DNA of 46,631 nucleotides, filler included, from Catajapyx aquilonaris (taxonomy: Eukaryota): the NCBI GenBank assembly GCA_000934665.2. It is 2 parts of 2 records of this genome, joined end to end, with 100 filler letters (N's around TTAATTAATTAA, not from the genome) between each part and the next. Parts side by side here need not be neighbours in the genome. Positions count along the whole stretch, not along the records: positions 1 to 23,874 come from JYFJ02005850.1; 1 more part is not named here. One strand, 5' to 3'. The notes under the pieces were generated by a model. It was not told the origin of the DNA and made no database searches. It saw only the letters and a list, made by a program, of their open reading frames with translations. A program made the translations under genes and the position numbers. Each line of letters opens with the position of its first letter. Position 1 is the first letter of the stretch. This document shows positions 1,500 to 34,244 of this stretch, piece after piece.

Positions 1500-1638
1500 T
1501 TTCGAGAGTACGTAGCGAATAGCAAGTTTGTCCCACCTTTCCTCGGATACAGCCAGGCTACCATATTCGCACCGACTGACGAAGCTTTTGGCAACTACCA
1601 AGGCGTTGTGGATGACACCATCTTGCGGTACCACCTGG
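1500..1638 (+). CDS. Fas1: Fas1 exon (FAS1 domain 1, FREYVANSKFVPPFLGYSQATIFAPTDEAFGNYQGVVDDTILRYHL)
   Basis: Acceptor ttctttcag|, donor G|gtaagt; H1 motif TIFAPTDEAF and YH motif; not in the ORF track because there is no start codon in this frame. Confidence 0.9.
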
Positions 1639-4600: not shown

Positions 4601-7600
4601 AGAAAGCAGGAATGATATATTTTGCTGGTAGACCTAAAGAAATAATTTGATAATATGGAAAGAACTTTTACAATACTTAGTTCACGTCACAATTTCTCTG
4701 GACCCTACTGTAAGATTTGACCTTGTCCAAGAATGTTTAGTTTGATTTCCTGTCTACAGAACATCCGTTTGTTGATTTAATTGCTTGTGCCAATTGAAGT
4801 TATATTGCCGACACATATATCATTCAACCCCTTGAGCAATACTTTTCCCCAGGATGTAGATGCTGTATATTAACAAGATATTATGCTGTAGTCATCAAGA
4901 CGCGCCTAAATTCAGAAATAGTTGGGAGCCAATGTAATGCCTCCATGCCATAGAATAGTTTATAGAGTGGTCATGGAGATATATCAAGTGTACAGAGATA
5001 ACTAAGGCCATAGTAGTTGACACAAAGTAATTAACTTCATTTCCTTCCTGTCTTTTTATAACCTTCAGAATGTTAAGGTAACACGCTTTCGCTTCTTCGT
5101 ATTCACTCCATTGCACGTTTACGGCAAGAAAAGCTACCATTTCAACACAAGCTGGCATGAACCACGACTGCACAAACTTAGAATCCTAGCCAAGAGCTGA
5201 ATGAGTAGCTGAGAGATACTGATGCTTGTAGAAGTGAACAAAGACTGAGCAGTGAGAACACATCTCTTGTGCTTCTTGGTTAGAGCATGGAATGAGCAGT
5301 CGACAGTTATACAATGGCTGAGAGGAAAGGAAGCGCACCCACAGTGACCCTGCCAGCAGTTACATTACATGTGTGCTTGGGTGTGCGTGGAGTGTGTGTG
5401 TGAGCGTGTGAGCGTGACTTCTAGACCTGAGCCAGCAGAAGGTTGAAACCCATCTGAGAACAGAATCTACTTGCTCCAGCGTGCACTCCACACACCCTTT
5501 TCAGTTGGGAATGTGTGTGAATACAGAGGCTCTCATCTTGACGCTGGCTTGACTTCACATACCTTTGTCAATGAATGGCAACACTTGTTGCATTGACATA
5601 CTTACTCCTCCTTGCCTGGGGACTGCTTTTTTTCCCCCTCCTTATTTCATCCTGGCTTACCAGCTTTGGTGAGGTTGCCCCTTATCAATTCTCTTGTCTC
5701 ACTTGCATGTCCTTTCCTTCTTCTTTTATGGGAGGAAAGAAGCCACTTGCTACTCTCTTTATAGTTTATAGCCAGTAGTGCTGATTTAGAGTAGGAATAT
5801 ATTAACTAATCTTGTAGCTGTGGTGTAGTTTTAAGGTATTTTTGATATTTTGAGTAGAATATTTTTTTGAGTTTTGTCAGTGAAGAGCATATACTAGCTC
5901 TTTCATATGTAAGAGTTTGGGAATAGTCACTTTTTGGTATGATACCTTCTAGACCTGCTGAAAAGAGCCAGAGCAATTCAGATATTTAACTCTGTGGGGA
6001 AGAATGGCGGTAGAGATGGTGATGATGTGCAAACAGTAGAATGAGGAGAATAATGATGTATTTTGCACAAACTGATCTACATCATCATTCAAAGTAAATG
6101 ACTCGGAAATATCCCCAACATAATGGTTGTATGTGTCACTGATACACAAACTACTTCATGAAGAGTTGCATTTGCAGTGAGTGTAGTCACACAATGATTT
6201 GTTTAGTCACAAAATTTGGTGAACCATACTGTAAGTAATTTGCCCAAAAAATTGCTTTGAAATATTTTGGCATCTGAAGAAACATTCTGCAGAGATGCTA
6301 ATGAGGCGGATAAGTTGATCAGCCAATAATATGACTACTTTAGCATACATTCATTGATTGTTCCTAGAGCAAAGCATTCAAAAACCTGCCTTTCAGTCCA
6401 CTTTTGGTTGAGATGAGAATAAAATAATGCTGAAACAGATGTGCTTGAGGGATTGGACTTTGCAATGAAATGTACAAGATTCTCCATGATTTGCCCGAGG
6501 TTTATCTGTAATTATCCTAGGATTCATGCCCTAAACATAGTAGATTCATGTTATTGCGTGGCCATGTGGACTGGCTACATCATTTTCTCCTGTACCCAAT
6601 AGTACAATTTTCATATCATATTATATCATATCATATCCATAATGGCATTTCCCAAATGAAATATGGGGTGCCAGCAAATAACAAGGTGGAGCTCCTCATT
6701 ACCCTCACACAACCAGTGCAAAAAAATTCTGGAGACTTGTCAGGTACTTGCAAAAAATAAGGGGAGGGGAATAGAACAGAATGCCAACAGCAACGGCTGA
6801 GCTGGGTTGTTTACATGGGTGATGTCCCTGGAGCCATCCACCAGGCAGGAGTGCTGTCTCAAATAAGATTTTCATGATGTGGAATTTGTGTGCTCACAAG
6901 GGTCACCTAAGGGACTTAACTCTATGTTATGGATGCAACAGGTCAGATTAGCTCTGTAAAAATTAATGGAGGGGAAGGGATATATGCTGAAAAGTGACCT
7001 TACGCCAATATGTTATTGTTATACTATATGTGCTCAATAATAACTTTAGTAATTTGATTTTACTGATGAGAATGTTTATGGCAGTACAGCAATGCTGTAA
7101 AAGAAAAGTAATATACTCTTCACGTTTTAAAAATATAGAATTTTAGGATGAAAATAAACACACATGTGACTATTTTGAAATTTATATTCTCATAATAAAA
7201 AAATCACTACTTGTGCTTTACAGACAGAGATATTTTTAAAACATTTCTCTTTCTCATGTGAGATAATTTTGCTGTCTTATTCTGATACCTTCTGAATAGC
7301 AAGTATGTCTTAACTTGCCAAGTCTGTTGAGGAGCTACTACATATGAAATGGAGCATAATGAAGATGAGACGAATATAAATTAATTGATGTTCTTGTTCA
7401 CTACAGGAGAAGAATGGGCAGCTTTCAAAGTTCTTTGAACTTCTGAAAGATCGAGATGCAGAACTGCTAAGTAAGATTGAAGGAGAGCGAGAACTGACTC
7501 TCTTTGCTCCATCAAACCAAGCTTTTCGAGATGCAGACCAGACTCGACTGAACGAAATAATATCTGATTCTGCCAAAGTGAGGGAGGTTCTCCAACTCCA

Positions 7601-10600
7601 TGTGTCTCCGCAAAAAGTGTATGCAGATGGGGATGCATGGACCACTCATTCCCAGGTATGTACATTTTGCTAGTCTTTTGCAAGTGTCTGGACCTAATTG
7701 CCTGGTTTAAGAATCATTGGTCTGAGTGTGAAATATGACACAGTTTTGTCATGTCTCTGGCAAGGAAAATGGGAAAAATAATCTGTTACCTAATAAATTA
7801 AAATAATGAATACATGTTCCTCACAAGTCACAAGGAGTGTAAAGATTGCCAATAGTCATTAATATCAGGGGTTTAGGGCCTATCGGCCAGGTCGACCCCT
7901 TAAGTCCCTACCTATGTCATTAATATCAAGCACATGCAGCACAAACAGCATTATTTTGTCAAAAAATTTAATACCCCTGATACGTCCAGGTGCCCTTTTT
8001 TTTTTGGGGGGGGGGGTACCCCAGGTGTACAAACGTGTGTTTAATGGCATAAGATCTGTATTCATGTTAGTATTGTAAGCTGCACCTTGGTTCTCAGGTG
8101 CATGAAGTCCCAACATGGGCTCATAGACAAAAGCTGTACTTCAACATCATGGGCCAGGGCCAGAACCGAACTATATCAGTTGAAGCAGGAGGTGTGAATG
8201 CTTCTGTGGTGCAGCCTGACATTGGAGCCACCAATGGAGTGGTGCACATAATTGATCGGATTTTGGGTGTGCCCTATGAGAGTGTCTTTCTGAAGTTGCA
8301 GCATCATCCTCTCCTCAAGTGAGCATTTGGAAAGATTGCACTGACTCCTCCTGTAACTCATTCACAAAATTTTAAACATTTCAGGAAGACAAGCGAAGTT
8401 GTGCGAGTAAGTGACCTTGAGCAAGAGCTGAGCGATCCCAACCAGAGACTGACATTCTTTGCGCCAAGTGATGAAGCATGGGAGCAGGCTTTTAGAGAAA
8501 TTCCATCTGCAGTGTCAAAGCTCAGTATCCCGAAGTATGGCTATCAAGTGCGTACAACTACCTACCTAATTCTTGCTTTTAGATGCAGTCCTGGGTGGCT
8601 ATGCGATGTAGAAAGTTCAATTCATTTGAAGACTAAATGGGGCTGATCCATAATGGTTCTTGTGACCTGTAACACACTTGCACTGTGTGTGCCCTTTATG
8701 GCCTTTTCTATTTTTGTCGGATTTTGTTTCCTGATTTAAATGCTGTTGATGTAATTTCGGGATCGAATTTTTGAAGGCTACCTAGATATCTGCCAGCTAT
8801 ACGCCAGGTGTGCATTTTTGGTCTTTCTCTACAATGCAAAAGCAGAGGTAGAGACTGGGGTGGACTTTCAAAATTCCACTCTCCATGCTGTATTGTCAAA
8901 ACAACGAGCACCCTGATTCCCTTCCTCGCCTTCACCTGTCACTTAAATCTTTCCAAGCTTGGCTGGACAGCCAATACCCACATTACCCTGCACCACCTGC
9001 CTCTCCAGCATCTGGAGTTACCCCATTAATTATTACCCCATTATATCCATTATGCTTGGAAGCGGCCAGTTGCCACTCCACAATGCTGGGGAAGAACCAA
9101 AAATGCACCCAAAGTGAAGAGCTGGTGGCGAAACTCCCAAACAGTGTAAGTGTGATGCTAGGAAAATCACATGATCCAGGTGTTCTTTCTGATTGACTGA
9201 TACAGTGTACGACACTAGTCCTTCCACATCCCAGGGATGCATCATGAGAGCTTTTTCAAGGACTTAACCGAATAGACCTTGTACTTAAACTGGTCCACAT
9301 TACAGGCACGCTACATTTTGGAACGCCACATGAAAAAGAATGCAGCCCTGACGATGGAGGCCTTGGCTCTCATACCTGGTCGTGTCCCTATGGTACGAGG
9401 CACTCTCAATGTCACGGAATACAGAATGAACGGTAAGGAATCAACTAGAGTTTTGACTTCGAAATAACCTACAATGCATTTGGTCTCATCCTTACAACAT
9501 GGGTCAAACTGGAGTGGACAGAGCTTTGCTTATGGCCATCCCAGTACCGCCAGTTTGACATGAACTCAAAAGACAGAGTAGTGCTTTATCTTCCTATGAC
9601 ACAACCTACTTTGAGTTGTCCTCTCAAAGAAGCTATATTTCATTTAGGCACATGCAGCCAACTAGATTAATCTGTGGGCAGAGTAGTGTGTACCCACATG
9701 CAGTAGTGGCTAAGAATACAGTCATTATGAAGTTACTATTTATTGGATGAAGCTTTAGCAGTTGAGAAGTGAATGCATGGACTTCCTGTACAAAGACAAG
9801 AATAGAGAAGAGAGATGGCTTTCTTGAGGAAAAGATATTTGCTGCATGTCCATTATCCTTGTTTGCCACATTGGCTGACAAGTTCGAGTTGCTCTACATT
9901 TGAATTTGTTTACATTGTATTGAAGATCAGCACTTTATTACGTTCCCTTTGAACCCTTTTATTTGAGGCCAGCTGCTGGTACAATATATTTGAATATAAC
10001 TAATGAACTGGGTGTTCCAAATGGAACGTTTCCCATGAGGGAACCGCCTGACATCTGAATGAGCTTCTTCCTAAGGTACTTGTATGGATTCCAAGAGGCC
10101 AGTCAATTGTATATACTTTTTTTCTTCAGAAAATAGGAAGAAGTTAGCGACAATCTTTATTCATGTTTGTTGTAAGAAATTCTGCCACTTGATCTAGATA
10201 AGCTTGGAATTATTTGATGTTTGCAAAGTAACTTTTTTATTTGCATGCACCAATCAAATGCTTGAAACATGTTGTCGCCATTTGCAGACTGGAAGGAGGA
10301 AAGTCAGCGAGGTAAGATGGCATCCAAAACATTCAGCTTCTTTTTTCTTTGCTTCTGTGCTTTTTTTGGCTTGTTTTTTTTATAGTTATGCTTGATATCT
10401 TAAACTGCCCACTTTGCACCAACTTATTTCCCCTGCCCATCCTATATGCCAAGAGCTTGGAAAATGTTATGAACATGTAACATTTTCCTTGCCCTGATTA
10501 ATGCTCTGACATGCAGTGTGTTTCACATGCGTGGTGTGTGCTCTGCAACATTGACAACAATCATCTTACAGTATGCCTCTCAGTTTCAATGCAAACAAGC

Positions 10601-10953
10601 TGATATGTGTTTGCAAACACTCTTGCATGACTTGGACAACCAAATTACCAGTAAACACTGATACAAACAAGAATGGCACTCACAAAAAATTATTACTGTT
10701 AATTCTCATGTTGTCTGTGCAATACCTTTGAGGATAACAAAAGAATTAATAAGTCACATCATTCACAGCCTACTGGATCGAACTGGATGGAATTCGAGCC
10801 AATGTGAGTCGCACCAATGTGGAGTGCACAAATGGCATCGTGCACATCATAAACAGACCGCTCTTTCGGGAGCGAGACGTGGTAGTGAGCCAGGCATCCT
10901 CCCTGCTGCTGCAGCTGCCACTGCTGCTTCTGGCTGCCATCCACCTTTTGTAA
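1500..10953 (+). CDS. Fas1: Fasciclin 1 orthologue (4 FAS1 domains, GPI-anchored cell adhesion molecule), spliced, 5'-partial: join(1500-1638,3026-3210,3268-3398,3456-3549,3612-3777,3842-4002,7407-7655,8098-8318,8385-8547,9306-9432,10288-10311,10769-10953)
   Basis: All introns are GT..AG and phase-compatible; the summed exons give 1845 nt (614 aa + TAA). FAS1 H1/H2 motifs occur four times (TIFAPTDEAF..VLHIIDKVLEP; NTFFMPVDAG..NIPVRNGVVHLISKPL; LTLFAPSNQAF..ATNGVVHIIDRILGVP; LTFFAPSDEAW..VECTNGIVHIINRPL), colinear with insect Fasciclin I. Hydrophobic C-terminus. Confidence 0.93.
2167..2237 (+). mobile_element. tRNA-derived SINE head / tRNA-like pseudogene
   Basis: A box TAGCTCAGTGG, B box GGTTCGATTCC in a CCGGG/CCCGG T-stem, acceptor-like TCCCCG/CGGGGA; the anticodon arm is non-canonical. 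Confidence 0.65.
2339..2464. mobile_element. 126-bp piggyBac-like MITE
   Basis: TIR CCTCCTGAGACCC / GGGTCTCAGGAGG; 4-bp TSD ATAA on both sides (variant of TTAA); subterminal palindromes GTACAGTATACTGTAC in both arms. Confidence 0.7.
3026..3210 (+). CDS. Fas1: Fas1 exon (domain 1, ANVAQ...SSELTGNPIIWIT...DIYVNDAMII...KEQ)
   Basis: Acceptor tttctacag|, donor CAG|gtaatg; phase 1 start matches the previous exon. Confidence 0.9.
3268..3398 (+). CDS. Fas1: Fas1 exon (VLHIIDKVLEP...GDHKL)
   Basis: Acceptor ccctag|, donor AG|gttggt; H2 motif of domain 1. Confidence 0.9.
3456..3549 (+). CDS. Fas1: Fas1 exon (KFAQQV...GKNTFFMPVDAGL)
   Basis: Acceptor ttctttcag|, donor CTG|gtaaat; H1 motif of domain 2. 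Confidence 0.88.
3612..3777 (+). CDS. Fas1: Fas1 exon (AVGKETINNQVIDGHIIPNHILFSR...DNIKVYV)
   Basis: Acceptor actttcag|, donor A|gtaagt; VIDGHIIPN resembles insect Fas1 VIDGHVIPN. Confidence 0.9.
3842..4002 (+). CDS. Fas1: Fas1 exon (FVASNTKVG...GNIPVRNGVVHLISKPLMIVDQTVYQILS)
   Basis: Acceptor cctatag|, donor AGT|gtgagt; H2 motif of domain 2. Confidence 0.92.
7407..7655 (+). CDS. Fas1: Fas1 exon (EKNGQLSKFFELL...LTLFAPSNQAF...VLQLHV...HSQ)
   Basis: Acceptor cactacag|, donor CAG|gtatgt; 83 codons, domain 3 H1 motif. Confidence 0.92.
8098..8318 (+). CDS. Fas1: Fas1 exon (VHEVPTW...VEAGGVNASVVQPDIGATNGVVHIIDRILGVPY)
   Basis: Acceptor ttctcag|, donor AA|gtgagc; domain 3 H2 motif. Confidence 0.93.
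8385..8547 (+). CDS. Fas1: Fas1 exon (KTSEVV...QRLTFFAPSDEAW...KYGYQ)
   Basis: Acceptor atttcag|, donor CAA|gtgcgt; domain 4 H1 motif. Confidence 0.9.
9306..9432 (+). CDS. Fas1: Fas1 exon (ARYILERHMKK...TEYRMN)
   Basis: Acceptor ttacag|, donor G|gtaagg; ILERH matches Fas1 domain 4. Confidence 0.88.
10288..10311 (+). CDS. Fas1: Fas1 24-nt cassette mini-exon (adds DWKEESQR)
   Basis: tttgcag|ACTGGAAGGAGGAAAGTCAGCGAG|gtaaga; strong splice sites, symmetric phase 1, stop-free, purine-rich. Confidence 0.65.
10769..10953 (+). CDS. Fas1: Fas1 last coding exon (AYWIELDG...NVECTNGIVHIINRPLFRERDVVVSQASSLLLQLPLLLLAAIHLL*), GPI-signal-like tail
   Basis: Acceptor ttcacag|; H2 motif of domain 4; small residues (SQASS) followed by a hydrophobic tail; TAA at 10951-10953. 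Confidence 0.92.
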
Positions 10954-12471
10954 GAGGCTGCTGTTGTTGCAGCCACCTCAAAGCGACAGTGCGTCACCAA
11001 TAGTCTCCTTCGGCCCAACCAGTCAAGGCGCTCGACAGGCTAAAAAGCTCCTCCTTTTCCATTCAAGGCCAGAAACTTAGACAAACTCCACAGGCTTGTG
11101 TTTTTCTGTGAATCTGGAGTGGAATGGCAGCACTCTGGCTTATCCCTCAACATGGGACACGTGTCATTCCAAATAGTTATACAGTATCTACATAATATAT
11201 TTTTTTTTCCACTGACACAGAAGGAAATCATGTATTTATCTCTTGGCAATTCCTCCTCATGTCTCCAACATGCTGTGAACTGCTACTGGGCGTAATGATT
11301 TTGTCCATAGAGTAGAATGTTGCAGCTGTAGGAAGAATGAGGAGCACTGAGATTACGATGTGCCTGTGGACGGTGGCAGAGATCGTCCCCATTGTTTAAA
11401 GCCCTCCTGTTGTGTGTCAAGTAGTGTACATGTGGCTTTGTGCGCCTGTGGCATCCCTTTGACTATGTTTCCAGATTCATATATTCGGACACACTAATGT
11501 TATTTTATGTGGAAGCCAACGCCCTTTTGGTCCAGATGTTAAGGTACAACCTATTCTGGAAGCCAATCATGGTTTGGATCATACATTGCGTTCTGAGTAG
11601 TGCATAAAGCTTGCAAAATTATGCCCTCTTACTTCAACTACATGGTGGGAGTCTTAAGGGCTCATGAACATGAGGGATATCCATAGCCCTTGTGATGCCC
11701 TCTCTTCTTCTTATTCACGTGTGTGCAACGTGTACATAATTATGTAGGAAGCTGCAGTTGCAGCTAACTTGTGAAATTAGTAGAGCGTACGAAATGTATA
11801 TCAGGAAAAATTAGAATTGCTAGCTACATGACACGTAGGTACAAAAAGTGCGAGGAAGTAGAGTGCATCTGTGCCTGTTTCACAAGTTGGCTGAACATGA
11901 AGCACCATGTTCATGTGTTGAGTAGCACAAGAATATTTTTCTTCATTGTACAAAAAAAAAGAGAGAAGGTGAATTTTAGCCAGTGGCGAGATGAAACCAG
12001 TTCTTTTTTTCATTCATTCCCAATGTTGGTCACAAGAATCTTAGACATTGTGTGTATTAGTCTCTCATGCACGGAATCTACACTCATGTTCTAGTCGCAA
12101 TCCCCAGCTCTAAAATTGTCACTTACCTTTGCATCATGCAAAATCAAAATTATAGTGAAGGTGTGAAATGCAACAGATGGTCATGAGAGAATGTGGCACT
12201 TGTTCCAGGCCTATCTTATCATGTGGAATGATTTGAAAAGTAGGTTCCTGTGACAGCAGAAATCTACATAAGAAGGGATATTTTACGTGAACTACAGCAT
12301 CCTCCTAAGAAAACCGTTTTATTTTTGTGAGAAATACTAGAGGTAAGGATTGTTTTATTTGCTGAGGCTCATTTTTTTCCTAAATTTAAGGTAAGCAGAG
12401 AGTACCTGCCATTTTGTGCATGTCTCTCAATTCCTGCTAGAATCTCATTTTGCTCTGTATTTGCAAGGACC

Positions 12472-12477
12472 AATAAA
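12472..12477 (+). promoter_or_regulatory. Candidate Fas1 polyadenylation signal (3'UTR about 1.5 kb)
   Basis: AATAAA at the end of a repeat-poor stretch after the stop codon, just before repeat-rich sequence resumes. Confidence 0.5.
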
Positions 12478-13331
12478 AAGCATCAGTTTTCACGTGGCCT
12501 GACCATTATTTCACAAAAACCCAGTCAATGTTTGTCACTTGTAAGGGTATAAACCAGGACTATAAAAACTTATTTCACATTAATCGACTGCAGTATACGA
12601 TGTCTGCTCCAGAAGGACGACTGACACAGCCAGGCGGCAACCTTGTACAAGTACAGGACGACAATTGTACGGAAGCCCCTATAAGGGTCAACCACAAACA
12701 CTCTTCTTTGGGGACAATCTTTCTCACACAGGCGCAAACACATACATGCCCGGGCACACACATATAAGGATCGACACAAATAGGACTGTGCAAACATATA
12801 GCAACACACAAACATATATAGCAACACACAAACATATAATGAACGAAACGAACTTGAAACCGTTCCTGTCTATGGTGTCCCCACCCTGACTGATACTCAA
12901 ACCAACCCACCACCCGATCCCTCTGGGATAGCGGTTTGGGCTGTATGAAAAAGGGTGAGGTTGTAAGGCCTCTTTGACCTACTGCCAATATGTCTCGCCA
13001 ACGAAGAAATATAGCTTTTTCTAGAAGACAAAGTAAAGATCTATGCCCTATGGTAAAGTTTTATTATTTTGATACAATCAAGTAGCATACTCTCTGTACA
13101 GTAGTAGTAGTACGCATTAAAAACCTGCGAATAGCTCATTTTTTACGATGTCGAGGACCAATCTCTCGATTATCCGTGTTTTACGATTATCCGGCAACAC
13201 CTGTGCAGTCATTAGCCCGGATAATCGGGAGTGCAGTGCACATATACGTACCTCTTCGATAGGATCAGCGTGAGTGGGTAGTAATATACAGTATAAGGTA
13301 CGTGCGGCCAGGTTCACCCCTAATTTTATGT

Positions 13332-13915
13332 CCGTTAACTTGGCCCAACCACTTTCGAATTTCGAAATTTCAACGATGGCAATCGTTTGTGCTACGTTTG
13401 TGCTGATTTGTGCTCGAATATGAGCGTTTGTGCTGGCTTGGTTTCAGAGTTATCGCGATTTCAATTTGGTTGGGCCAAGTTAACGGTAGCCCAACCACTT
13501 TCGAATTTCGAAACTTCAACGGTGCCAATCGTTTGTCCTACGTTTGTGCTGATTAGTGCTCGAATATGAGCGTTTGTGCTGGCTTGGTTTCAGAGTTATC
13601 GCGATTTTAATTTGGTCGGGCCAAAATAGCGCTTTTGAAATAAAGCGAATTTCAAAATTTCAACGATGGAAATGGTTTGTACTGCGTTTGTGCTTATTTG
13701 TGCCCGAAGATGGGGGATTTGTGCTGCAACCGTTCTCGAGATACAGCGAGGTCAGTATTGTTGTGTGGCCAAGTTAACGCTGGTCACCACAGCACTAGCT
13801 TAGCGAATTTCAAAATTTCAACTGGGCGAATCGTTTGTGCCCTGTTTGTGCTCATTTGTGCTCGACTATGGCCGTTTGTGCTGCTTCGGTTTCGAAGATA
13901 TCGCGATTTAAATTA
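13332..13915. repeat. Diverged tandem array, 4 units of about 145-158 bp, probably internal to a non-autonomous DNA transposon
   Basis: CGAATTTC(G/A)AAA(T/C)TTCAAC recurs near 13355, 13501, 13645 and 13803, with multiple TTTGTGCT motifs per unit; 20-bp IR CCGTTAACTTGGCCCAACCA (13332-13351 / 13467-13486). Confidence 0.8.
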
Positions 13916-15043
13916 TGGCGTTCCTTATATTCAGTGAGCAGCTACTGAAACAGCAGCTTATTAGCTGTAAGTGCCAATTTCCTGCATAAAATTGCAAATA
14001 GATCATTAAAATGGAATTCACACAGGAATATCTGAAGTAAATTGCATGTAATAATATACAATCGGCCATGAGACGGTGGGCCATTACGCAGCGTACTGTA
14101 TAGGAGAATAGATGGATCATTTGAAAAATACCATGATATGAGTGACAAAGTGACAACAGCCAAGCCCTCTGCACAAGTTGCACCACATATTACAATCTAC
14201 ACGCTATATGGGTCTTTGTGTCTGTCTGTCATGTAGGAAAATGTTTGGGAATTCTGCAAGGAACTACTATACTACTATAGGGTGATTCACTAAGTAGTTG
14301 ACCCAAGAACCTACTGTGATCTTGCCTCTTTTCGCATGGTAGGGGTAAACCATACAGTTATGGGACATTTAAGAAATTTTCCAAGTTCACATCATCACAT
14401 GACCCACAGTCATTACATCTGCATTTTGATTATATTTTTTTCTGAATCTTCAGAATGCTCTCTTTCAAGGAGCAACTGTAATTTAGAAATTTTCCTTTAC
14501 TGTCATTTTTGGCAATGAAAAGTCACAAAAGAGTCACAAAAGTACAGCAATGGGTCACTTTTCACAGTGATGGGCCGCCTTTGGGACAGTGGTGGGACAC
14601 CTAATTGAGGCGCTTAGGAAGAGGGGGGAGGGGAGGATTTTTTGGGGAAAATTTTTAAGACACCTGCTTAATGGGAGGGGGCGGTCACTTTTTTCGAAGA
14701 AAAAAGTCACAAAATAAAAATAAAAATAAAAATGATCAAGTGGCTTCGCTTGTGTTGTCCATCCCGGCAACCCCCGCCCTACACACCCCATTGTCCCTAC
14801 ATTTGTCTTATACCAGGGAGTTCCATTCTCAAACCTATCACCCCTCCAAATATTTAACCCTACAATTTAAACTATAGGTCCAATAAATTCACCAGCACAT
14901 GCAAATTAATCGGCACACTTTTTAGGGCATTTCCAATGGTTTGTTGCAGCCTGACCTTTGACCTGAAAGGCCCTAATATTAGGTTTTTGGTCTGGGGCCA
15001 GGCCCTACCTCGGTCTGCATCTGTCGGAGCTTTCGTAATGAGA

Positions 15044-15487
15044 CTGTACAGAGCACAGTACTTAGATATACAGTATATCTCTCGATGTGAGGTAGTATGC
15101 CCCTAGCCTGCTAGCCAAATGTAGCAGTCCGCCTGTCCTTGTGGGTATAGCGGGGCGGGGGTGGAAAGGGGGGAATATGTAAGGTCAAAGAGACAGGAAG
15201 GCGACCAAGCCTATACACCAAAATTTGCCTATCTAAAACCGCGTCGACGATATGCGCATCTCCACGTACAGCAGAAGCGTGTTGGAATTTATTATTTTAA
15301 TAATCCATAGAGCAATGCCACGAAACAGTGATGCCGCATGTCCGTCCTGATGACCCCAAGGAGGTGACCACTCGCCTACGTCACATTCATAGATACTGAT
15401 ACCTGCCACTACGTTTGGCTAGGGGCATACTAGGCCTACCTCACATCGAGAGATATACTGTATATCTAAGTACTGTGCTCTGTACAG
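15044..15487. repeat. Inverted repeat pair (65/71-bp arms, about 310-bp spacer) upstream of the EPC copy
   Basis: 15044-15108 is the reverse complement of 15417-15487 apart from a 6-nt GGCCTA insertion in the right arm. Confidence 0.85.
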
Positions 15488-15584
15488 CAGCTGCTTTATG
15501 TGCAATCAGTTATTTTGTAGCACAGTAGTACCGTATCATAATAATATAGAATTGGCTCGAGACTGTGCCTCTGTTTGTCCGGGG

Positions 15585-15627
15585 TGATTCTTATATGACC
15601 ACAGTGTATGTGGTCATATAAGAATCA
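15585..15627. repeat. Perfect 19-bp hairpin, probably a collapsed mariner-type MITE
   Basis: TGATTCTTATATGACCACA-gtgta-TGTGGTCATATAAGAATCA, preceded by CGGGG (mariner-like CGGGGTGATTC end). Confidence 0.6.
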
Positions 15628-15698
15628 ATATTAGAAATTCTGCAGTTTGCCCTTGCTTTTTTCAGACTGACTCTACTGGTGTCGTTGTTGGATCATCC

Positions 15699-17369
15699 AT
15701 GAGTGCAACTTCACGTATTGCAAAGAACAAGGTGTCATTTCGTGCACGTGCTCTGCTGGACCCTTCTAGACCAATGGCGATAATGTATGCTACATACTGT
15801 AGAGTTAGACTTGCCAGAAACTGTCATCAGCCGTGCTGTTCCGCAGATGCCTACTGGCATGGAGAAGGATGAGGAATGTGAGCACCACCTGCAAAAAGCT
15901 ATAGGCCTACATGAAGGAAATGCAATACCAACCTCAGGGGTGCTTGACCTATCTGATCCCGAAGAATATGATCAGTGCTATCCATGTAACTATACACACA
16001 TCCGGAGCAGTTAGTAGGCCGTGCAGAACGACTCGGTGGGTGTGTAACACCCCCAGCTAGGACATGGATTCGGATGATGAGGAGTGGTGTTCAGCTCATC
16101 ATTTGGAAGGCCTTCAATTTGAGGCAATGGTAGATCGTTTGGAGCAACAAAGTGTAAATAAGGTGGTTACACTGGAGGAAGCCCAAAAGTTATTTTTAAA
16201 ATCCCCTAATGATGTAATGGATGTGTACAATTATAAGCGTTTGGTACTGCAACGTCCTCTTCTGGTACGTACCACGTACCAAGATGGAACCTGTCCGTGG
16301 TGATGACCCATATGTGGCTTTTCGCCGTCACTCTGGACGGATGTAAACTTGTCGCAATAGAAAGAATGATGAAGGCTCATATGAGAAAATGTTGGCCTTC
16401 ATACGTGACACACGTAAAGTGCTGACAGCCTGACACTGCTTGACTTAGTGTCTCGTCGGGAAACAATGAAAAAAGAGAAACTCAAGGTGAATCTGAACAT
16501 ATTTGAAGCAAGATACAGTGCAGGAGACTTTGATGGTAAGTTGATTCGTGAAGTGACACCTCCATCACCACCAAGAGTACCACTAAATGACAAATCATTA
16601 GCATGGTAATGATGCAGACTGGGTACTGGGTGGAAAATCTCCGGCACACAAGTTCCATCCTGGCAAGCCTGCTTGGGTGAACCTGCATGATACACCACCA
16701 ACTGTTCCTAAAAGGCTTTTGTCAACCGGTGGGAAAACAAAGATGTCATGCACTACCCGAGCAATACCAAGAAATTAAGTGATGATGAGTCAGATGATGA
16801 AGATCCAAGATCCATTTGCATTTCACCCAAGGGAGAACTGCACCTACCTAGCACCAAAAGATGTATTACCAGATGTTCCAGTTTTGCCGGACCCTTCCAA
16901 AGTCGGGATAGTACTACGCCGAATAGGACGGGGTGGGCGTATCATATTTGACCAAGGGTATGGAGAACGCACTGAAGAGGTGAGGTATGAACCGAAGGAC
17001 ACCCCAGCGTCACCTCACCAGTTTCCTCCAGCCTTAACCATTAGAGATGAAAATGGTGAGGAAGTGATGTCTCTCAAGCTGGTAGCACCACTACCCTCAT
17101 CAGAGAAACCAACCCAGTGTACTTCATTATCAGGCAAGTCATCATCTACATTTTATGTTGACCTCCCAACACAAAAGTTTTTTGCAGCTGCAGGTAATGG
17201 TGAAGGAAAGGCACCTCCTCCGGTGCGACGATTAATGGCTGGAGAGATGTTGATTCGGCGCAACTATGGCGGTCAGCGCATTCCCATGCCATCTGGCGTA
17301 CAGTTTTCCAAGGTGATGACTACAAAAAGGGGAACGTTTGTCAAGCTGTCTGCTTCACAACTACTGTAG
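15699..17369 (+). pseudogene. E(Pc): Intronless, divergent Enhancer of Polycomb (EPC1/E(Pc)) homologue with frameshifts and stops
   Basis: Colinear EPC motifs across changing frames: KVSFRARALLDPSRPM; ISRAVPQMPTGMEKDEECEHHLQKAI; DMDSDDEEW; LQFEAMVDRLE..VVTLEEA; DDPYVAFRRHSGRM*TCRNRKNDEGSYEKML; RRETMKKE..FEARYSAGDFDG; DPFAFHPRENCTYLAP; RRIGRGGRIIFD. In-frame stops at 16058 (TAG) and 16344 (TAA); frameshifts near 15795, 15997, 16295 and 16430. No introns in the coding part. Confidence 0.88.
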
Positions 17370-18459
17370 CAAGTCTCAGGCAGAAGTCATTATCACCAGG
17401 AAAAAAAATAGTCCGGGGAGGCAGGGGAGGGAGCAAGGGAGGGAGCCATTTGGAGAGTCCACGTTCATAATCACCTGCGTGGATCTTTCTTGGGTGTGTT
17501 TCAGTATAATATTAAAAATATTATACAGGATTTGATGTAAAAATGTACCTGCTGCTTTATGGTCATACACCCATTGCAGATTCTTCAAAATGTTTGAACT
17601 TTATATACCCATTGCATTTAAGGCATAGAACAAGTTCATTTTCAAACACGTAGAAAATGATTTTATACCCTAAAAATAAAAATAAACAGCAGTCCTCTTT
17701 AAATTATAACAGTTAATATAGGTCAGTTACACTAAAGGTACCTAAGTTTATGAGTTATCTAACCTGATACGACAGCCCATATAAATGATATGTCCTCGTA
17801 TTATAATGCTCTTCTTCGTGCTCTTCACACTCAGGTTTTTATTTGGCATGGCAGTTGCGACAACTTCTCTGTATAGAGACCTCAACTGGTAGTCAGGAGA
17901 ATATCACAAATAAGACGATCAAATCCTTTTAAGGCAGAGTGCGAAAGATATAATTATTGGAAAGGGCATTTACTGTATACCACCCTGATATTTAATAAGC
18001 ACTTATACATATTAAGATCTATAGAGTACATTGCACAAAGTGTAGATTAAAGAGTCTTGCTACCTGCTTGCTACATGGCAGCTTTTATATGGAGTGGTAT
18101 TGGTGCATTGCAAGTTGTGGTACAGTATAGTTACTTTTTAAAGACATAATTTATTGGGATGGGACCAGAGCAATGATGATTTTTCTACTACACTCTAAAG
18201 TGGAATTAGACCGTATATTTTCTGCCGTATATTTTTTTATCAAGGTGTACTGTACACCTTGTTTTGTATGTGCTTTTACTACATTTTGTGGGTAAAATGG
18301 CAAATTGAATTCTTTTGATGTAATGTACTTCTTTCTCATATTGGGAAAGCTAATTTAGAATACAACAGTTGCTATGCAGGCTTCATTTTTCACATCTGTA
18401 AGTAGGAGTATACATAAAGAAGATTGATATTGAGCATTTTGCATTACTTTGTAGTATTT

Positions 18460-19130
18460 GAGGGGGTGAAAATCAAAAACCGACAGCTCCAAAAAACCAA
18501 AAAAATGAGTTAGCGCCGGCAATGCATTCCTCATGCCATGGAGTACATAATACCTTAATATGGTATTTAAAATCCTGCAACAAAGCCGTCAAATGCAGGG
18601 GTGAAAATTGACCTCCGTAACAAAAACCGCCAGCTCCATCCCCACTCGCAGAAAATTACAGATCAAAAACCGCCAGCTCCATCACGAAACTAAAGCTATG
18701 GGAGACAGTACATACTGCGAAGCTCGTACGGATAACGACGGTGCGAATTTTACAGAATTTACAGAATTTTAACAGAACACCTTGCGTAATGCAATGGAAC
18801 GTTGGTATGTAAGCGTGGAATAAACTTCAACATTTACACGCCGGATAAACCTGTGTTTCATGTTTCCCTCACTCAATTTTGCATCAAAAACCGCCAGCTC
18901 CAGCCTGTTGCAAATCAAAAACCGCCCAGTGGCGGAATGGACGGTCCTCAGCTCCTTGGGTAATGGCGGATGATTTCATAATAACTTACCAATGGTTGAG
19001 TTGCTAGTAAAGGAATCTATAGCCGCTACATTCAGGTGTCTACGTTGACATACGGCGAAACTGTAGGTTTTTCTCGTTTTTCTCCGTTACGTTTATGACG
19101 GAGCTGTCGGTTTTTGATTTTCACCCCCTC
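18460..19130. mobile_element. Non-autonomous Sola-like DNA transposon (671 bp)
   Basis: Perfect 31-bp TIR GAGGGGGTGAAAATCAAAAACCGACAGCTCC; GAG..CTC termini; 4-bp TSD ATTT (18456-18459, 19131-19134); internal CAAAAACCGCC repeats at 18621, 18664, 18885 and 18916. Confidence 0.8.
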
Positions 19131-19370
19131 ATTTGGTTTAGTTATTTTTCTTTGAACTCTGAGGTGGGGGAAATGTCCATGTGCCAAGTTTTTCTCTAAT
19201 AATTTAGAACAAACTGCAAGATTTGATCTTGTAGAGTATGATCTCGAGTAATATAATTTTCCTGCAGGTGTAGTCAAGCAATGCCAGATGTTTACATTTA
19301 GGCTAGTAGCTTGTACGTGTGTATGCCCAGTTGTGCTATTCTAGAGAGGGAATTTTGTATATATCACGTA

Positions 19371-19870
19371 CAGTAAAACTTATATAAGTCGAATCTCCAT
19401 GGGACCGGGAAAAAACTTCGAGTTATAGAAGATTCGAGTTAGAGAAGTTTGGAATTTTTTAAGCACATAACTCTATAAGGAAGCCTACCTTTATATCCAG
19501 CGACGAAAGGTGTTCAAAACTTAAAAATAACTGTCACTATCACACTTACAATGTTCCTCGTTGTTTTGTTGTAAAAAAAAAATCTGCGTCATGGACATTT
19601 GCCTACTCTATCTCTCTACTTAGATTCAAGGATCCAATTGTCACAATCCAGTCAAACACTTCTTTCGGTACGTCTGGTAGACGCGGAGATCAGGATAGTG
19701 AAGCCTTTCTGTACATGTGGCCTACTCTCGACCCTTCGGCTGGGAAATGAGAAAATTTTCCGTACTCGCCAACATGAACTTGGACTTCGGGAGACTGAAA
19801 ATGCATTGATATCACATCGTATAAGGCCCTGCCAGCACTTCGAGTTATGGAGAACTTCGAGTTGTGGATA
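19371..19870. mobile_element. Tigger/pogo-type MITE, right end degraded or interrupted
   Basis: TA|CAGTAAAACT left end with repeated TTCGAGTTA subterminal motifs near both ends. Confidence 0.5.
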
Positions 19871-20749
19871 TATTGGATAGTTACCTGATCAAATGACCCT
19901 GTGACCCATTTTTGAGTGGGAGGGGGGCAGAGGTCAAATTCTGACCTCACCTATTTCTTGAAATTTGGTGCATTGACATATGAGGCGCCTTCTTCCTAAA
20001 CCCGATAAATCCAAGATAAATGGTTCCGAGATAATTGAGAAAAAGCTGTGGTGCCGAAGCTATAATTAATATTACAAGACTTAGGAAGTCGAAGACGAGG
20101 AAGACGAGGAAGTCCATCTGCTACATATGTGGATGCTGCATATGATGAGCTTTTACAAGAAATTGATCAACATCGTCAAGTCGTAGTTTCAGGAATAGTC
20201 GTTGTGGATATATTGATTTTTGCTGCAAAGAGAGTGGATTTGGCGGTTTTTGCAAACATTGAGGAAATTTGAAGAAAAAAAAAATATACAGTTTTACTCC
20301 TCTGAATATTGTTTGTTAGTGCTTTTCTGCATATTGTTCGCCACTACAATGATTAGGGGGCACGGCAGTGCCCCCGCCAAGTTCTCACCGCACTGCCGGA
20401 CCACCGTTACCCGACACAACTCACATCATTTTGAACCCCTCGAATCTTCGCACTGGTGAACATAGGTGGCTTCAAAATTTTTATTTGGGTAGATAAAAAT
20501 TCGTTAAAAATACTACCCCCTTACTTCCATGTTCATATCTCTTTTCATCTCCGACTTTAAAAATCCTAAAAACTCCCAAAACGGCCAAAAAATGACACTG
20601 ACTGACTGATCATCAAAATTAAAGGGAACACTTCCAGTGGTCCTGGGGTGCTGAAATTTGGTATGATGGTAGCGCTTGTCAAACAAACATCCGAATAAAT
20701 CTGAAAACGGCACTTTTTAAAATGCTAAAATATCTCCTGTCAATTAATA

Positions 20750-21508
20750 TCGAAAGTCTACTCTTGTTTTTTTCCGGAAATGTCAAGAAAACATCTCAGG
20801 CTTCATTTATAGCGCAATTCAAAAATTTTCAAAAATGTCCATTTCTGAGAAAAACATAAATCAAAGTTTTGGACGCCATCTTTAACTCAAAATTTTGATA
20901 TCTTACAAACATGAGTCCTACTGTCTGAAAAAGAGTTCAAATAGCTTCCCAACGCATGAATCAAATTTGGAATTTGTAACAATCTCCTGGCAGTTATGGG
21001 CCTCCAACTGAGTGCGGACGGAGGCAACATTTTTGTATGCGCTTTTAGAGTTTTTAAATAACGCGAGTCTACTCTCGTTTTTTTACGGAAATGTCAATAA
21101 AACAATGTAGGGTTCATTTTAAGAGCAATTCAAAATTTTTAAAAAATGTCCATTTCGGAAAAAAAAATAAATGAAACATTTGGACGCCATCTTTAATTTG
21201 AATTTTTAAAACTTTACGAACGTGACTCATACTGTCTGAAAGGGTGTTACAATAGCCTCCCATTCCATTAATCATATTTCGGATATGTCGCAATCGCCCG
21301 AAGTTATGGCCTTCCAACTGAAGGCGGACGGAGCCAAAATCCGTAAAAATCCGCACCTTTCGCACCCTGTAGATATGCAACCACGCGTCGCAGGGACAAA
21401 CAAAAAGAGGTCCTTGCTCACAGCCATGTGTACTACAACATACTCGGTTTTGGTGGAAATCGGAAAAAATTTGTCGGGGAGGGGGGTCCAGTTGACGTGG
21501 AATGCCTC
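20750..21508. mobile_element. Non-autonomous DNA element ending CGTGGAATGCCTC|ATAT, with an internal about 310-bp duplication
   Basis: Units starting GTCTACTCT near 20756 and 21066; the terminal ~150 bp is homologous, inverted, to 21947-22100. The left boundary is uncertain. Confidence 0.6.
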
Positions 21509-21517
21509 ATATATATA

Positions 21518-21941
21518 CAGGGTGTATCTGAACTCAGTGCCCCGACATATATGACTGCCTTCCTAGCCACCAGAGGATCGATTTAAGTATAGGAATCATT
21601 ATGTTTGACCGCCGCATTACGGAGATAATTGGTCGCAAACATGTAGTACAAAATATCCTGTTGGTTAGGCCACCCATCGAACCCTCCCCCAGTCAGAAGG
21701 CTCTGGAAGGTCTGGGGGCCGGACTTTGTTGGTTTGTTGCCCACAGGTGGTAAGGCCTCTTTGGCTAGTTACACCAGAAAATTCTATTTGAAGGTCAGAA
21801 GGAGCGATTAGGCAAAAATCGCTAAAGAGTGTATCTCCGTAATGCGGCGGCCAAACATAATGATTCCTATACTTAAATCGATCCTCTGGTGGCTAGGAAG
21901 GCAGTCATATACGTCGGGGCACTGAGTTCAGATACACCCTG
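21518..21941. mobile_element. Mariner-type MITE family A, copy 1 (424 bp)
   Basis: About 110-bp TIR starting CAGGGTGTATCTGAACTCAGTGC; TA TSD; near-identical copy at 33816-34240. Confidence 0.9.
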
Positions 21942-21946
21942 TATAT

Positions 21947-22400
21947 GAGGCATTCCACGTTAAGCGGGCCACCTTTCCGACAAATCTTTGAGGACTTGAC
22001 CAAAATATAATGACATGTACTACTCATCGACCTATGCAGGAACCCAAATTATTATACCTCTGCGTTGCGTGGTTGCGTAACTACAGGGTGGACAAGTTGC
22101 TATTTTTCACTCATTTTACGCTGTCATGGCTTAGAATGGAGGCCAGTAACTTCTGAATCCCTAAAGTGATTCCAAAAGTGATTAGTGATTTGGACAGGTC
22201 TGCAAACGCTCTTTAATACTATGTCATCAAGAATTTTGAAAAAATGAACATTTCGATTTCAAAATGGCGACCAAATTTTGATTTTGATTTAGCTCAAACT
22301 TGGACATTTTTGATATTTTTTGAATGTCTCTTAAAATGAAGCTTGAACGATCCTACTGATATTTCCGAAAACTCTCGAGGACCCTTTTTTGATTTTTATC
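21947..22400. mobile_element. Related element beginning ATAT|GAGGCATTCCACG, facing the element that ends at 21508
   Basis: Shares the terminus and the subterminal CGACAAAT and GCGTGGTTGC..TACAGGGTG motifs with the reverse complement of 21360-21508. The right boundary is uncertain. Confidence 0.55.
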
Positions 22401-23127
22401 CGCTACAAGCTGCGATAGGACCCCCCCGCCCCCTCTCTTATTCCCTCTGCCTTCCGGCCGGCCGGAGACCGATTAATATATTGCGCTGGCGTGGATCGTC
22501 TCTGCTGCAGCTGGCTCACTGGATCTCACTTTCTTACATGCCCAACTGAAGGAAGTAAGTGTGATAGACACATAATATAGACACTGCCCTTCCCTGCTTA
22601 CTCTACGAGTAGAATCATCAGCAGACACTAACATTGGGAAATATGACGAGAGTAGTATTCGGAGCAGTACAACAACAACAACAACTTTATCTGCTAACCT
22701 ATGCGCTTGTCCTATACCGACTCACTCCCAGAATTTATTTAGCTGAACTGATAACCTCTATGATCATTTAAAAAGAAACTAAAGGGTCAGTTTATAACTA
22801 GCCCATAATGTTAAGGGAAGAAAACTCAGTTCACATCGCAAATGAAATATGAGAACTTTCCTCCCTATTGTGACGTACAATGTTGATGATAGCTGACTAA
22901 CTCCTGTTTATTTCAATATTAAAACTACCATGCTTTAATGCTAATCAAGATAATTTAATTATATTGAGTATGACGTGAGGGTTGGATATGTGTAGTGAGT
23001 GTGACATACCGGTATTGCATTTGTTGTAAATACGATTTTAGCCATAGCGTTGTAAAGTTTAATAGGTTCTGGGAAAGGCCTTCTCAATCCGGAGGGGGGA
23101 GTGAGGTAGGGCGTGGGTCCCTTAGTC

Positions 23128-23187
23128 CACGGAGCTTTGAGTCATCCAAGCACAGTATACTGTGCTTGGATGACTCAAAGCTCCGTG
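23128..23187. mobile_element. 60-bp perfect palindromic mini-transposon with 8-bp TSD (hAT/P-like)
   Basis: CACGGAGCTTTGAGTCATCCAAGCACAGTA|TACTGTGCTTGGATGACTCAAAGCTCCGTG flanked on both sides by CCTTAGTC. Confidence 0.85.
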
Positions 23188-23365
23188 CCTTAGTCTCCGG
23201 GAAGATTAGCGAAAGGAATGTATTGAGAGGGCTTCCCGGTCCGGCGTTGCCGAAAACGAGTTTGTCCCTTCATTCTGTGTGCAAAGGGGAACAATATTCT
23301 CAGAATTCTGTAAAAACCTAGTAAACTAGGCAAGACAGGAGAGAGGTCGGAGGCTACCTTTGAAC

Positions 23366-23368
<3 letters not shown>

Positions 23369-23445
<77 letters not shown>
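23369..23445. repeat. (TA)n microsatellite
   Basis: Pure TA run. Confidence 0.95.
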
Positions 23446-23448
<3 letters not shown>

Positions 23449-23874
23449 ACCAAATATATATATGTATATATGTATGTATATATATATAGTTCAAAACTGC
23501 AAGAGTCATGACACAAACAATACGCGTATTGCATTTTTCGTCAGTGAAATGCGTATTTCACACTATTGCCGCATGAATGCCGCAGACTAGTAGGTCTCGA
23601 TTCAGCAAGTAGTAGCCTCTCCCACCTAGTCAAGTTAATTAACAGCGAGCGAGAAACTATTTTAATATTATCAACAATCAATATTATGACCTCTTGAGGT
23701 CAGAGTGACGACCTATCGAGGTCAGATCTCAAATTCGCCCCTAGACGTGGGTGACCTAGAGATAGTGGGAAGGTTAAGGACTTTTACCTTGGCACATGTG
23801 TCACTTATTGGACCTATGTGAGCCGATTTCGCGCTTTTGCCAAGTTGGGGGGTCGTGCATTGGGGGGGTCGTGC

Positions 23875-23974
23875 NNNNNNNNNNNNNNNNNNNNNNNNNN
23901 NNNNNNNNNNNNNNNNNNTTAATTAATTAANNNNNNNNNNNNNNNNNNNNNNNNNNNNNNNNNNNNNNNNNNNN
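23875..23974. other. Assembly gap (100 nt) with artificial TTAATTAATTAA spacer
   Basis: N runs on both sides of a 12-mer at 23919-23930 that puts stop codons in all six frames. Confidence 0.9.
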
Positions 23975-24077
23975 CCCCTGGATCCGCCACTGTTACTACG
24001 TGCATTATCATCAAGTTGATGATAATGTATAATAATGCAATTCAAGTAGGCTATACCGTGCATTTGTGCAGTATTTA

Positions 24078-33120: not shown

Positions 33121-33815
33121 TCACCCACGACATTGCACTGGACTTTGCACACCCCCTCCTGTCATCCTTCCCGCATTGATTTGACACTCTTTTACTAATA
33201 TTTCATTCCCCTTAAATGCTTCTACTATTACGGTAACATTTTTGGTTTGGTTTATCCTTAAACTTATGCTATCACCTTTGGAGGATAACAAAAGTGTAAG
33301 GTTAAAAGCTACTGAAAATAATTGCCATCTGGGTAATATCGAAGAGAACTGAAAAATATCACATAAAATATGGGGGTGTCCCACCCCCCCCTAAGAGAGC
33401 CAAGGGCTCTAGCACGGGGTAGCAAATATAATTTAAAAAATCAAAACAATCTGCATAATGAAAAGGAACGCCTGAGTGACCAGTGTTTACAGAAGGAAGA
33501 ACTGTTCTACAGCTGACATTTCCATCAGACAATTTTTTGATGTTATGTGAACCAACAGAAACACAGCTGAAAAAATATTTTGTTAGAATTTCTGTATTTA
33601 TGTAGCCTAACGGCATAGTAACTTAACTTTTTCCCTCCTTTTTGGTGCCACAAGGGTTAAATACTGTACAATGTGAAACTCAACTGAAGGCAAGAGAGTA
33701 TAATCTTGGTTTCTCCCATGCAAATGTGTAAGTCGGGATGTTAAATAAATTTGAATTTAATTTAATTGATGCCTTGACAAAATATAATGCCGATTCACAA
33801 CTCAGAAATGATATA

Positions 33816-34240
33816 CAGGGTGTATCTGAACTCAGTGCCCCGACGTATATGACTGCCTTCCTAGCCACCAGAGGATCGATTTAAGTATAGGAGTCATTAT
33901 GTTTGGCCGCCGCATTACTGAGATAATTGGCCGCAAACATGTAGTACAAAATATCCTGTCGGTTAGGCCACCCATCGAACCCTCCCCCAGTCAGAAGGCT
34001 CTGGAATGTCTGGGGGCGGGACTTTGTTGGTTTGTTGCCCACAGGTGGTAAGGCCTCTTTGGCTAGTTACACCAGAAAATTCTATTTAAAAGTCAGAAGG
34101 AGCGATTAGGCAAAAATCGCTAAAGAGTGTATCTCAGTAATGAGGCTGCCCAGACATTATGACTCCTCTACATAAGTTGATCCTCTGGTGGCTAGGAAGG
34201 CAGTCATATACGTCGGGGCACTGAGTTCAGATACACCCTG
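33816..34240. mobile_element. Mariner-type MITE family A, copy 2
   Basis: Same TIR and core as 21518-21941; TA TSD. Confidence 0.9.
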
Positions 34241-34244
34241 TATA

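Follow-up and report, generated by a model that had tools for sequence, protein, structure and literature searches.

Positions 15699 to 17369 (plus strand) of the window, by which we mean the whole stretch of 46,631 nucleotides from Catajapyx aquilonaris that was analysed, hold an Enhancer of Polycomb (EPC) remnant without introns that is broken by about ten lesions. It is tentatively read here, with somewhat less than even confidence, as a defunct copy from a small family of host genes for compact EPCs, which would represent a second EPC lineage spread by host duplication. The parts of the locus and its immediate surroundings are as follows.

15044 to 15487, no strand assigned: MITE-like insertion, unrelated to the EPC unit, with terminal inverted repeats of 52 nt that match perfectly
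15544 to 15587, no strand assigned: truncated end of a very high-copy element (depth 971-1686 in its bin, loose ends on both sides)
15585 to 15627: 43-bp near-perfect hairpin between the high-copy element end and the EPC start (inverted-repeat search)
15589 to 15698, plus strand: short 5' flank, where depth is no more than about double that of the window copy itself (read contigs)
15699 to 16560, plus strand: EPcA-homologous region (alignments, motif reading and, over part of it, zero-difference read contigs)
Lesions of the EPcA region, plus strand: frameshifts near 15795, 16008-16046, 16267 and 16421, stops at 16058 and 16344 (alignment)
Near 16230, plus strand: invariant tryptophan missing, with a small in-frame gap (alignment)
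16561 to 16808, plus strand: variable linker with an acidic patch and frameshifts near 16602, 16618, 16723 and 16800; its frame assignment is uncertain between about 16620 and 16750
16809 to 16967, plus strand: shortened EPcB with both conserved ends present (alignments, sister contig)
16968 to 17369, plus strand: open tail of about 133 codons that ends at TAG (ORF and homology searches)
17370 to 18450, plus strand: 3' flank common to sister copies, probable 3' UTR (read contigs, depth)

A first-pass annotation of the locus had described colinear EPC motifs, an absence of introns and about ten disabling lesions, and this was borne out by frame reading, by the match to human EPC1 and by alignment to five canonical EPCs. 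The motifs lie in colinear order between an ATG at 15699 and a TAG ending at 17369 and are scattered across all three plus-strand frames. Human EPC1 was matched by the frame-1 read-through in four colinear stretches with an E-value of 4.8e-12. In protein searches with this read-through, 2043 of 2331 candidates in the size class of 305-973 aa passed an E-value of 0.001, with nearly all named proteins among the 120 matches listed being EPC, and 37 of 201 were retrieved in the class of 974-2780 aa. The best protein matches reached at most 58 bits, with the exception of a nematode protein with a duplicated segment (77 bits), and no close intact relative of the window copy was found in the protein collections searched. 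Frameshift-aware alignment to the five canonical EPCs gave 42-48% identity over 394-451 aligned residues and counted 8-10 frameshifts and two clear in-frame stops at 16058 and 16344; a third stop near 16599 appeared in only one of the five alignments. EPcA homology spans about 280 residues, and identity over 252 columns was 41-50% to 12 arthropod or arthropod-like EPCs. The Pfam family EPL1 gave no match on the broken single frames of the window copy, and 120 EPC queries found no second EPC stretch elsewhere in the window at E < 0.01.

Three of the lesions are perfect 7-nt tandem duplications (16267, 16618 and 16800), of which 0.09 would be expected from 300 codon shuffles, and an imperfect 8-nt duplication lies at 16421. 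The three perfect duplications are possibly excision footprints of one DNA-transposon family, or repair scars. The duplication at 16800 brings several ATGs in frame with the last 187 codons of the EPC gene, which are free of lesions, as opposed to about ten in its first two-thirds. They belong to the longest ORF of the whole window (16779-17369, plus strand, 195-196 aa), which carries only the EP400/DMAP1-docking plug and the tail. Separate selection on this last ORF was considered and rejected, as 11 of 11 listed differing codons were non-synonymous and no constraint was shown.

Further copies were identified in read contigs. Three DNA runs (X1, X2 and X3) of one sample, which is probably the source of the window's assembly, were aligned to 15490-18450 at 80% likeness; four DNA runs of this sample, these three included, contain 75-84% of the sampled window words. 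Nothing from a further run (X5) aligned to this stretch, and no RNA run was listed among those containing the window words. Of 542 records, 387 substitution rows and 160 indel rows, 24, 40 and 12, respectively, were listed, and the results below on single records and sites refer to these. Among these records, contigs with zero differences to the window copy were found in all three runs over 15564-15870, 17157-17508, 17486-17845 and 18034-18341 and in one of the three runs over 16166-16461, and no zero-difference record was listed for the lesions at 16008-16058 and 16602-16800. Since zero-difference contigs span 15564-15870 and 16166-16461, the lesions inside these parts are present in the reads, and assembly error was rejected as their source for the parts spanned.

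At least two further sequence variants, about 89-91% alike to the window copy, overlap most positions. Within the ORF, four sister records (records 2, 4, 11 and 19) differed by 8.6-10.9% (25 of 290, 27 of 309, 62 of 569 and 70 of 696 letters) and contained many gap letters. Summed depth in the ORF bins was 54-109 (X1), 68-144 (X2) and 84-152 (X3), and the zero-difference records had depths of 8-19, 16-18 and 21-39, respectively; such contig depth is not equivalent to copy number, and the window's own records vary about twofold. Plausibly, the family comprises 2-5 further loci. Homology of the sisters runs through the 3' flank to the end of the aligned stretch at 18450, which is at least 1.1 kb (records 7, 14, 15 and 23), and the bin just 5' of the ATG has only about twice the window copy's own depth, i.e., the 5' flank is little shared. 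Both conditions under which the first-pass annotation would have been abandoned, a single copy and frameshifts made by the assembly, thus failed, the latter for the part of the lesions covered, and its expectation of several copies with a shared flank proved right for the 3' flank.

A reading of the sisters as divergent alleles of this single locus, with a null haplotype in the window and a sample that was either pooled or very heterozygous, is very improbable. The evidence for other copies comes entirely from contigs of one sample, and the twofold variation in depth among the window's own records would suit this explanation as well. However, 9-11% substitutions together with many gap letters are far above the usual allelic divergence, the 5' flank is not shared at equal depth, and up to 4-5 contigs carry the other letter at single places. 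At each listed difference site, the other letter is shown by 1-5 contigs.

The listed sisters appear less damaged than the window copy. They lack its extra letters at 15753, 16267 and 16800. Over 15865-16192, two sister records have 13 and 10 letters fewer, so that the net frame offset of the window is cancelled there, and sisters carry extra letters at 16212-16231, where the window lost the invariant tryptophan. At the near-invariant positions L235 and R448 (reference numbering), the canonical residue is retained by the sisters; in one column of 50% conservation, the window has the canonical residue and the sisters differ from it. No intact family member was seen among the records and the substitution and indel rows listed.

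The branch that separates the window copy from its sisters is neutral, and the window copy is dead. Of the listed substitution rows, 22 fall in the ORF and affect 21 codons, 19 of them non-synonymously and two synonymously, with 8, 10 and 4 substitutions at the first, second and third codon positions. For the non-synonymous share, the neutral expectation is 0.742 (P 0.064), whereas an omega of 0.3 gives P 3e-5; counted as 17 events, the same test gives P 0.15 and 4e-4, respectively. As 19 of 21 differing codons are non-synonymous, the data fit neutrality and not an omega of 0.3. Listed sister divergence was 122 of 1295 letters in the ORF versus 46 of 719 in the 3' flank (Fisher P 0.019, from records that are not independent). 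The ORF is no less diverged than the flank, so there is no sign of purifying selection among the copies, and this is what all-dead copies or positive selection alike would give. It is unlikely that at least one sister is intact and expressed and that the family consists of rapidly turning-over, amplified alternative TIP60 scaffolds, which would still bring the acetyltransferase to the complex but with a swapped tail and would probably be germline-restricted. If so, the 19 of 21 non-synonymous codons and the higher divergence of the ORF than of the flank would point to positive selection, as in germline conflict families.

A neutral terminal branch does not account for the ancestor. When compared with 32 canonical EPCs, the window copy retains the consensus residue at 70 of 86, 40 of 69, 28 of 71, 18 of 62 and 10 of 64 positions from the most to the least conserved class, for which canonical leave-one-out means are 0.99, 0.85, 0.69, 0.49 and 0.26. 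Neutral decay was simulated from nine sources at six levels with 200 runs each. Simulated decay of a centipede, spider, sea-spider or mite EPC matched the middle classes only at 0.3-0.4 changes per base, which leaves invariant residues at 0.45-0.55 and predicts 9-11 stops, whereas the window has two; the probability of at most two stops at 0.3 changes per base is 0.01 or less. A fast-evolved source with 0.10 changes per base fitted all five classes (0.80, 0.56, 0.41, 0.31 and 0.16 for source P0042; 0.81, 0.58, 0.39, 0.29 and 0.16 in the window). Because neutral decay of a slow EPC cannot give this retention profile with only two stops, we infer that the ancestor was selected and fast-evolving.

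The proposal of the first-pass annotation, a compact source EPC that evolved fast under selection as opposed to a slow gene in decay, is therefore upheld by the retention profile, the simulation and the EPcB segment described below. Its check for neutral differences gave a divided answer, as the copy's own branch is indeed neutral, but neutral decay of a slow EPC cannot explain the ancestor. For the same reasons, it is extremely improbable that a slow conventional EPC left just one old processed pseudogene here, which then decayed neutrally: the locus is intronless, broken and neutral on its own branch, as such a pseudogene would be, but read-contig variants show that it is not single, and its graded retention with two stops was out of reach for neutral decay of any slow EPC tried.

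In a tree of 34 sequences, from which one nematode row with a duplicated segment was left out, the window copy formed the longest branch (2.01 versus a median of 0.17). Its placement among arthropods was not resolved, with a weak 86/88 group with arachnids, in a reference set that contains few hexapods or crustaceans. When neutral change of about 10% is corrected for, the source would come to about 62% identity with the centipede EPcA, and canonical EPCs range from 56% (psyllid) over 58% (copepod-like) to 66% (fly) in the same comparison.

In excerpts of published work on human EPC1, EPcA (human residues 1-280) is described to bind KAT5, MEAF6 and ING3, and the MBTD1 binding site is placed at residues 644-672 (PMC9296003). 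EPcB is described as a long loop (400-440) followed by a three-stranded sheet clamped by DMAP1 and EP400, with K407 and H416 of EPC1 contacting EP400 (PMC11330486), and the same EPC1/EP400/DMAP1 hub appears in an excerpt of PMC11578891. An acidic cavity receives R457, R458, R461 and R464 of EPC1, and EPC1(1-464) is enough to tether the acetyltransferase module, as stated in excerpts of PMC11995519.

Alignment to human EPC1 showed that the equivalents of all four of these arginines are present in the window copy, and EPcB with the arginine plug was recognised by a profile match with a probability of 97.4 and an E-value of 9e-12. Basic residues stand at the equivalents of human 407 and 416, and the stretch from there to the arginines is 21 residues shorter in the window. 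Gone are the W-P-W loop, whose motif occurs in 29 of the 34 canonical rows aligned, and the beginning of the first EPcB strand. The EPcB segment thus comprises 34 residues in the window versus 47-90 in 159 measured EPCs (143 fetched proteins of 160 scanned and 16 metagenome locus ORFs). One sister record (record 11) has 696 letters over 16788-17512, with 67 gap letters and a net 29 fewer. It can hold at most 19 added letters, so that the EPcB gap is common to this sister, and the gap is thus a family trait and not a product of decay.

Alignment of the last ORF to the EPC profile is limited to its first 53 residues, and for the tail past residue 53 no relative was detectable in protein, Atlas and metagenome searches, in line with the short unrelated C-terminus noted initially. 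Among 1.84 billion representatives, the last ORF gave three weak matches with 23-30% identity and 9-10 repeated stretches each; these were rejected as relatives and read as compositional. The Atlas search with the last ORF returned no usable match, none of 101 matches from a metagenome pattern search was confirmed, and the HFRP motif of the EPC family consensus is absent from the window tail. From these features, the ancestor may have been a TIP60 scaffold of an alternative kind, with about 530-540 residues and a foreign tail, that remained tethered. A role as a piccolo-only or untethered scaffold was rejected on account of the retained anchoring arginines, and the previously suggested role as a Tip60 antagonist is not favoured, as the residues that tether the TIP60 core are retained.

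The first-pass annotation had taken the intronless and short form of the gene as evidence for a paralogue. Both properties are true of the window, but they carry less weight than assumed. Among 80 metagenome loci, multi-exon EPC genes are interrupted at about codons 51/52, 103/104, 184/185, 220/221, 243/244 and 270; the window copy has no intron-sized insert at these ancestral sites, and none of the sister records in the joint table of read contigs spans an insert that resembles an intron. Empty intron sites are what a retrocopy would show, although the parent may have been single-exon itself. Intron remnants were considered and rejected for the lesions near codons 103 and 243, as these are few-base shifts or a short duplication and not intron-sized. 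Intact canonical EPCs with a single exon were found among ordinary-looking genes on arthropod-like genomic metagenome contigs; from stop to stop they measure 479 aa (L008 5941-7380), 650 aa (L009 5893-7845) and 684 aa (L019 1176-3230). A mite EPC has 527 aa. Since such single-exon compact canonical EPCs exist, being intronless and short is no proof of a paralogue. The shortest of them, with 479 aa, ends soon past the EPcB plug and is a natural match to the human EPC1(1-464) truncation.

A serious, if doubtful, alternative is therefore that the source was the host's only EPC, which had become single-exon, compact and fast-evolving, with the window as one of several ordinary pseudogenes. The single-exon canonical EPCs among ordinary genes speak for it, as does the corrected divergence of the source, which lies within the canonical range, and nematode-type EPCs also lack the W-P-W motif. 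The first two of these points count against a second lineage as well, together with the absence of an intact member among the listed records and of a close relative in the protein collections. On the other hand, none of the 159 measured EPCs has an EPcB segment of fewer than 47 residues, the tail has neither a relative nor the HFRP motif, and several copies of a housekeeping gene would need explaining. In that case, what remains of the finding is an orthologue that is trimmed to an unusual degree, together with its pseudogene copies.

The surroundings of the locus bear on how the copies spread. A fasciclin gene on the same strand ends about 3 kb upstream of the EPC locus. This multi-exon gene (1500-12480, plus strand) has Fasciclin Pfam matches on four ORFs, three of them at or above the cut-off. 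It is Fasciclin-1-like; several of its introns measure about 60 bp, its hydrophobic C-terminus ends near 10950, and what is probably its 3' UTR reaches an AATAAA near 12472. A search with one fasciclin exon confirmed none of 102 candidates. In one of its introns, at about 2165-2235 (plus strand), a tRNA-like sequence was recognised by eye, possibly the head of a tRNA-derived SINE. The 3' flank of the EPC copy contains AATAAA at 17675 and 17681 and ATTAAA at 17511 and 18046. Neither a poly(A) tail nor a target-site duplication was found near the stop, and the shared unit extends to at least 18450.

Many small inverted-repeat elements surround the EPC locus, but no transposase or viral Pfam family was detected there. 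Two MITE copies (21513-21945 and 33811-34244) are 95% identical and have 115-nt inverted ends, and the first is nested in an older, larger inverted-repeat element (21082-22371). Tandem arrays with 146-bp and 92-bp units and two long fold-back elements were located at 13343-13914, 45935-46253, 30292-30581 and 37289-37587. At 18475-19115, a 16-nt motif occurs five times without mismatch (four times on the plus and once on the minus strand) where 0.02 would be expected by chance, which is typical of subterminal repeats of DNA elements. No Rfam match was obtained in 12000-24000. A 100-base joint at 23875-23974, made of a 12-base word with stops in all frames and 44 N on either side of it, is probably an artificial linker, so that the sequence past this joint is not necessarily continuous with the EPC locus. 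In that part, at about 43950-44045 (plus strand), a peptide resembles by eye the end of a mariner-type DDE domain, without a Pfam match, and a hydrophobic ORF at 40678-41058 (minus strand) has a sub-threshold match to Astro_1A (E 0.002, 18.4 bits, cut-off 27), probably by chance.

The suggestion that the compact EPC was cargo of a mobile element (Pack-type DNA transposon, Helitron or Maverick) or a virus, and might recruit or block Tip60, fared less well and is now considered decidedly unlikely. It would account for the 3' flank of at least 1.1 kb that is common to several copies, for the high-copy element end and the hairpin 70-155 bp before the ATG, and for the repeated 16-nt motif that marks an element from 18475 on. 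However, no transposase or viral Pfam family was found in six-frame read-throughs of 12480-15690 and 17370-23870, so that 3.2 kb upstream and 6.5 kb downstream are free of mobile or viral genes, nor in 89 ORFs of at least 72 aa beyond 23975. In IMG/VR, none of 55 pattern matches encodes EPC; this collection consists mostly of prokaryotic viruses. No partner of the upstream element end (15544-15587) was found in the window, and the copies have little of the 5' flank in common. Within 15490-18450, cargo is a poorer fit to the long shared 3' and short shared 5' side than either a duplication of host DNA or copies of a transcript whose 3' UTR is long. The observed-to-expected CpG ratio is 0.53 in the ORF and 0.36 in the 3' flank, versus 0.24-0.42 in the fasciclin gene body and 0.77-0.86 in element-rich DNA. 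The CpG-poor EPC unit thus resembles a host gene more than the elements, which is a weak argument, as local methylation could have the same effect.

Returning to a second lineage of compact host EPCs, the following course of events might be proposed. The window pseudogene would belong to a small, lineage-specific family with at least three loci, the ancestor of which was an intact, single-exon, fast-evolving EPC of roughly 530-540 residues. This ancestor would most likely have arisen by retrocopy and persisted as a second EPC beside a conventional one in the host. It would have retained EPcA, which builds the Tip60/ING3/MEAF6 acetyltransferase module, and the arginine plug docking into the EP400/DMAP1 pocket, but lost the EPcB loop and exchanged its C-terminus, becoming an alternative tethered TIP60 scaffold with other tail partners. 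The gene and its 3' UTR may then have been copied by ordinary host routes (retroposition or segmental duplication), and the window copy, having landed 3 kb downstream of the fasciclin gene, would since have accumulated neutral change of about 5-10% as well as about ten lesions, including several short tandem duplications.

The window itself holds only a dead copy. A lineage with EPcA and the docking arginines but without the EPcB loop and the whole tail amounts to a natural deletion experiment, in agreement with the human truncation result that EPC1(1-464) retains tethering. A living second EPC, if there is one, would point to a specialised TIP60 variant in an arthropod, plausibly in the germline. 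Loss of Epc1 or Tip60 disturbs H4 hyperacetylation in mouse spermiogenesis, as given in an excerpt of PMC6792021, and E(Pc) and Tip60 act together in the fly testis according to PMC5308785. By analogy, one might guess at a germline role of the compact EPC family. At the level of titles and the beginnings of abstracts, no literature on EPC paralogue families or on transposon- or virus-borne EPC was found, which is a weak blank.

When compared with known systems, the window shares colinear EPcA, linker and EPcB with canonical EPC, the NuA4/TIP60 scaffold (human EPC1/EPC2, Drosophila E(Pc), yeast Epl1; PF10513), and keeps the near-invariant residues (70 of 86) and the four anchoring arginines. 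In contrast to canonical EPC, it is broken, multi-copy and the longest of the 34 branches, its EPcB is at least 13 residues shorter than any of the 159 measured, and its unrelated tail lacks the EPcC/MBTD1-binding region, which is also missing from many arthropod EPCs according to Pfam annotation. The three single-exon canonical EPCs from metagenome contigs are likewise without introns and compact (down to 479 aa, stop to stop), but they are intact and retain the W-P-W loop, with EPcB segments of 57-61 residues. They are not close to the window copy, as their summed tblastn scores of 138-176 bits are no better than those of other EPCs.

Families of processed pseudogenes are similar in being intronless, in sharing long 3' and short 5' sequence and in decaying neutrally. 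The compact EPC differs from them in that no poly(A) or target-site duplication is seen near the stop and in that the common ancestor of the compact EPCs appears to have been strongly remodelled under selection already. Stellate, which derives from CK2-beta in Drosophila, is an amplified, fast-evolving germline duplicate of a housekeeping gene with birth-and-death turnover. Like Stellate-type families, the compact EPC is a trimmed duplicate of an essential regulatory subunit with several copies, dead members and many amino-acid differences; unlike them, it shows no intact member among the listed records and no tandem array in the window.
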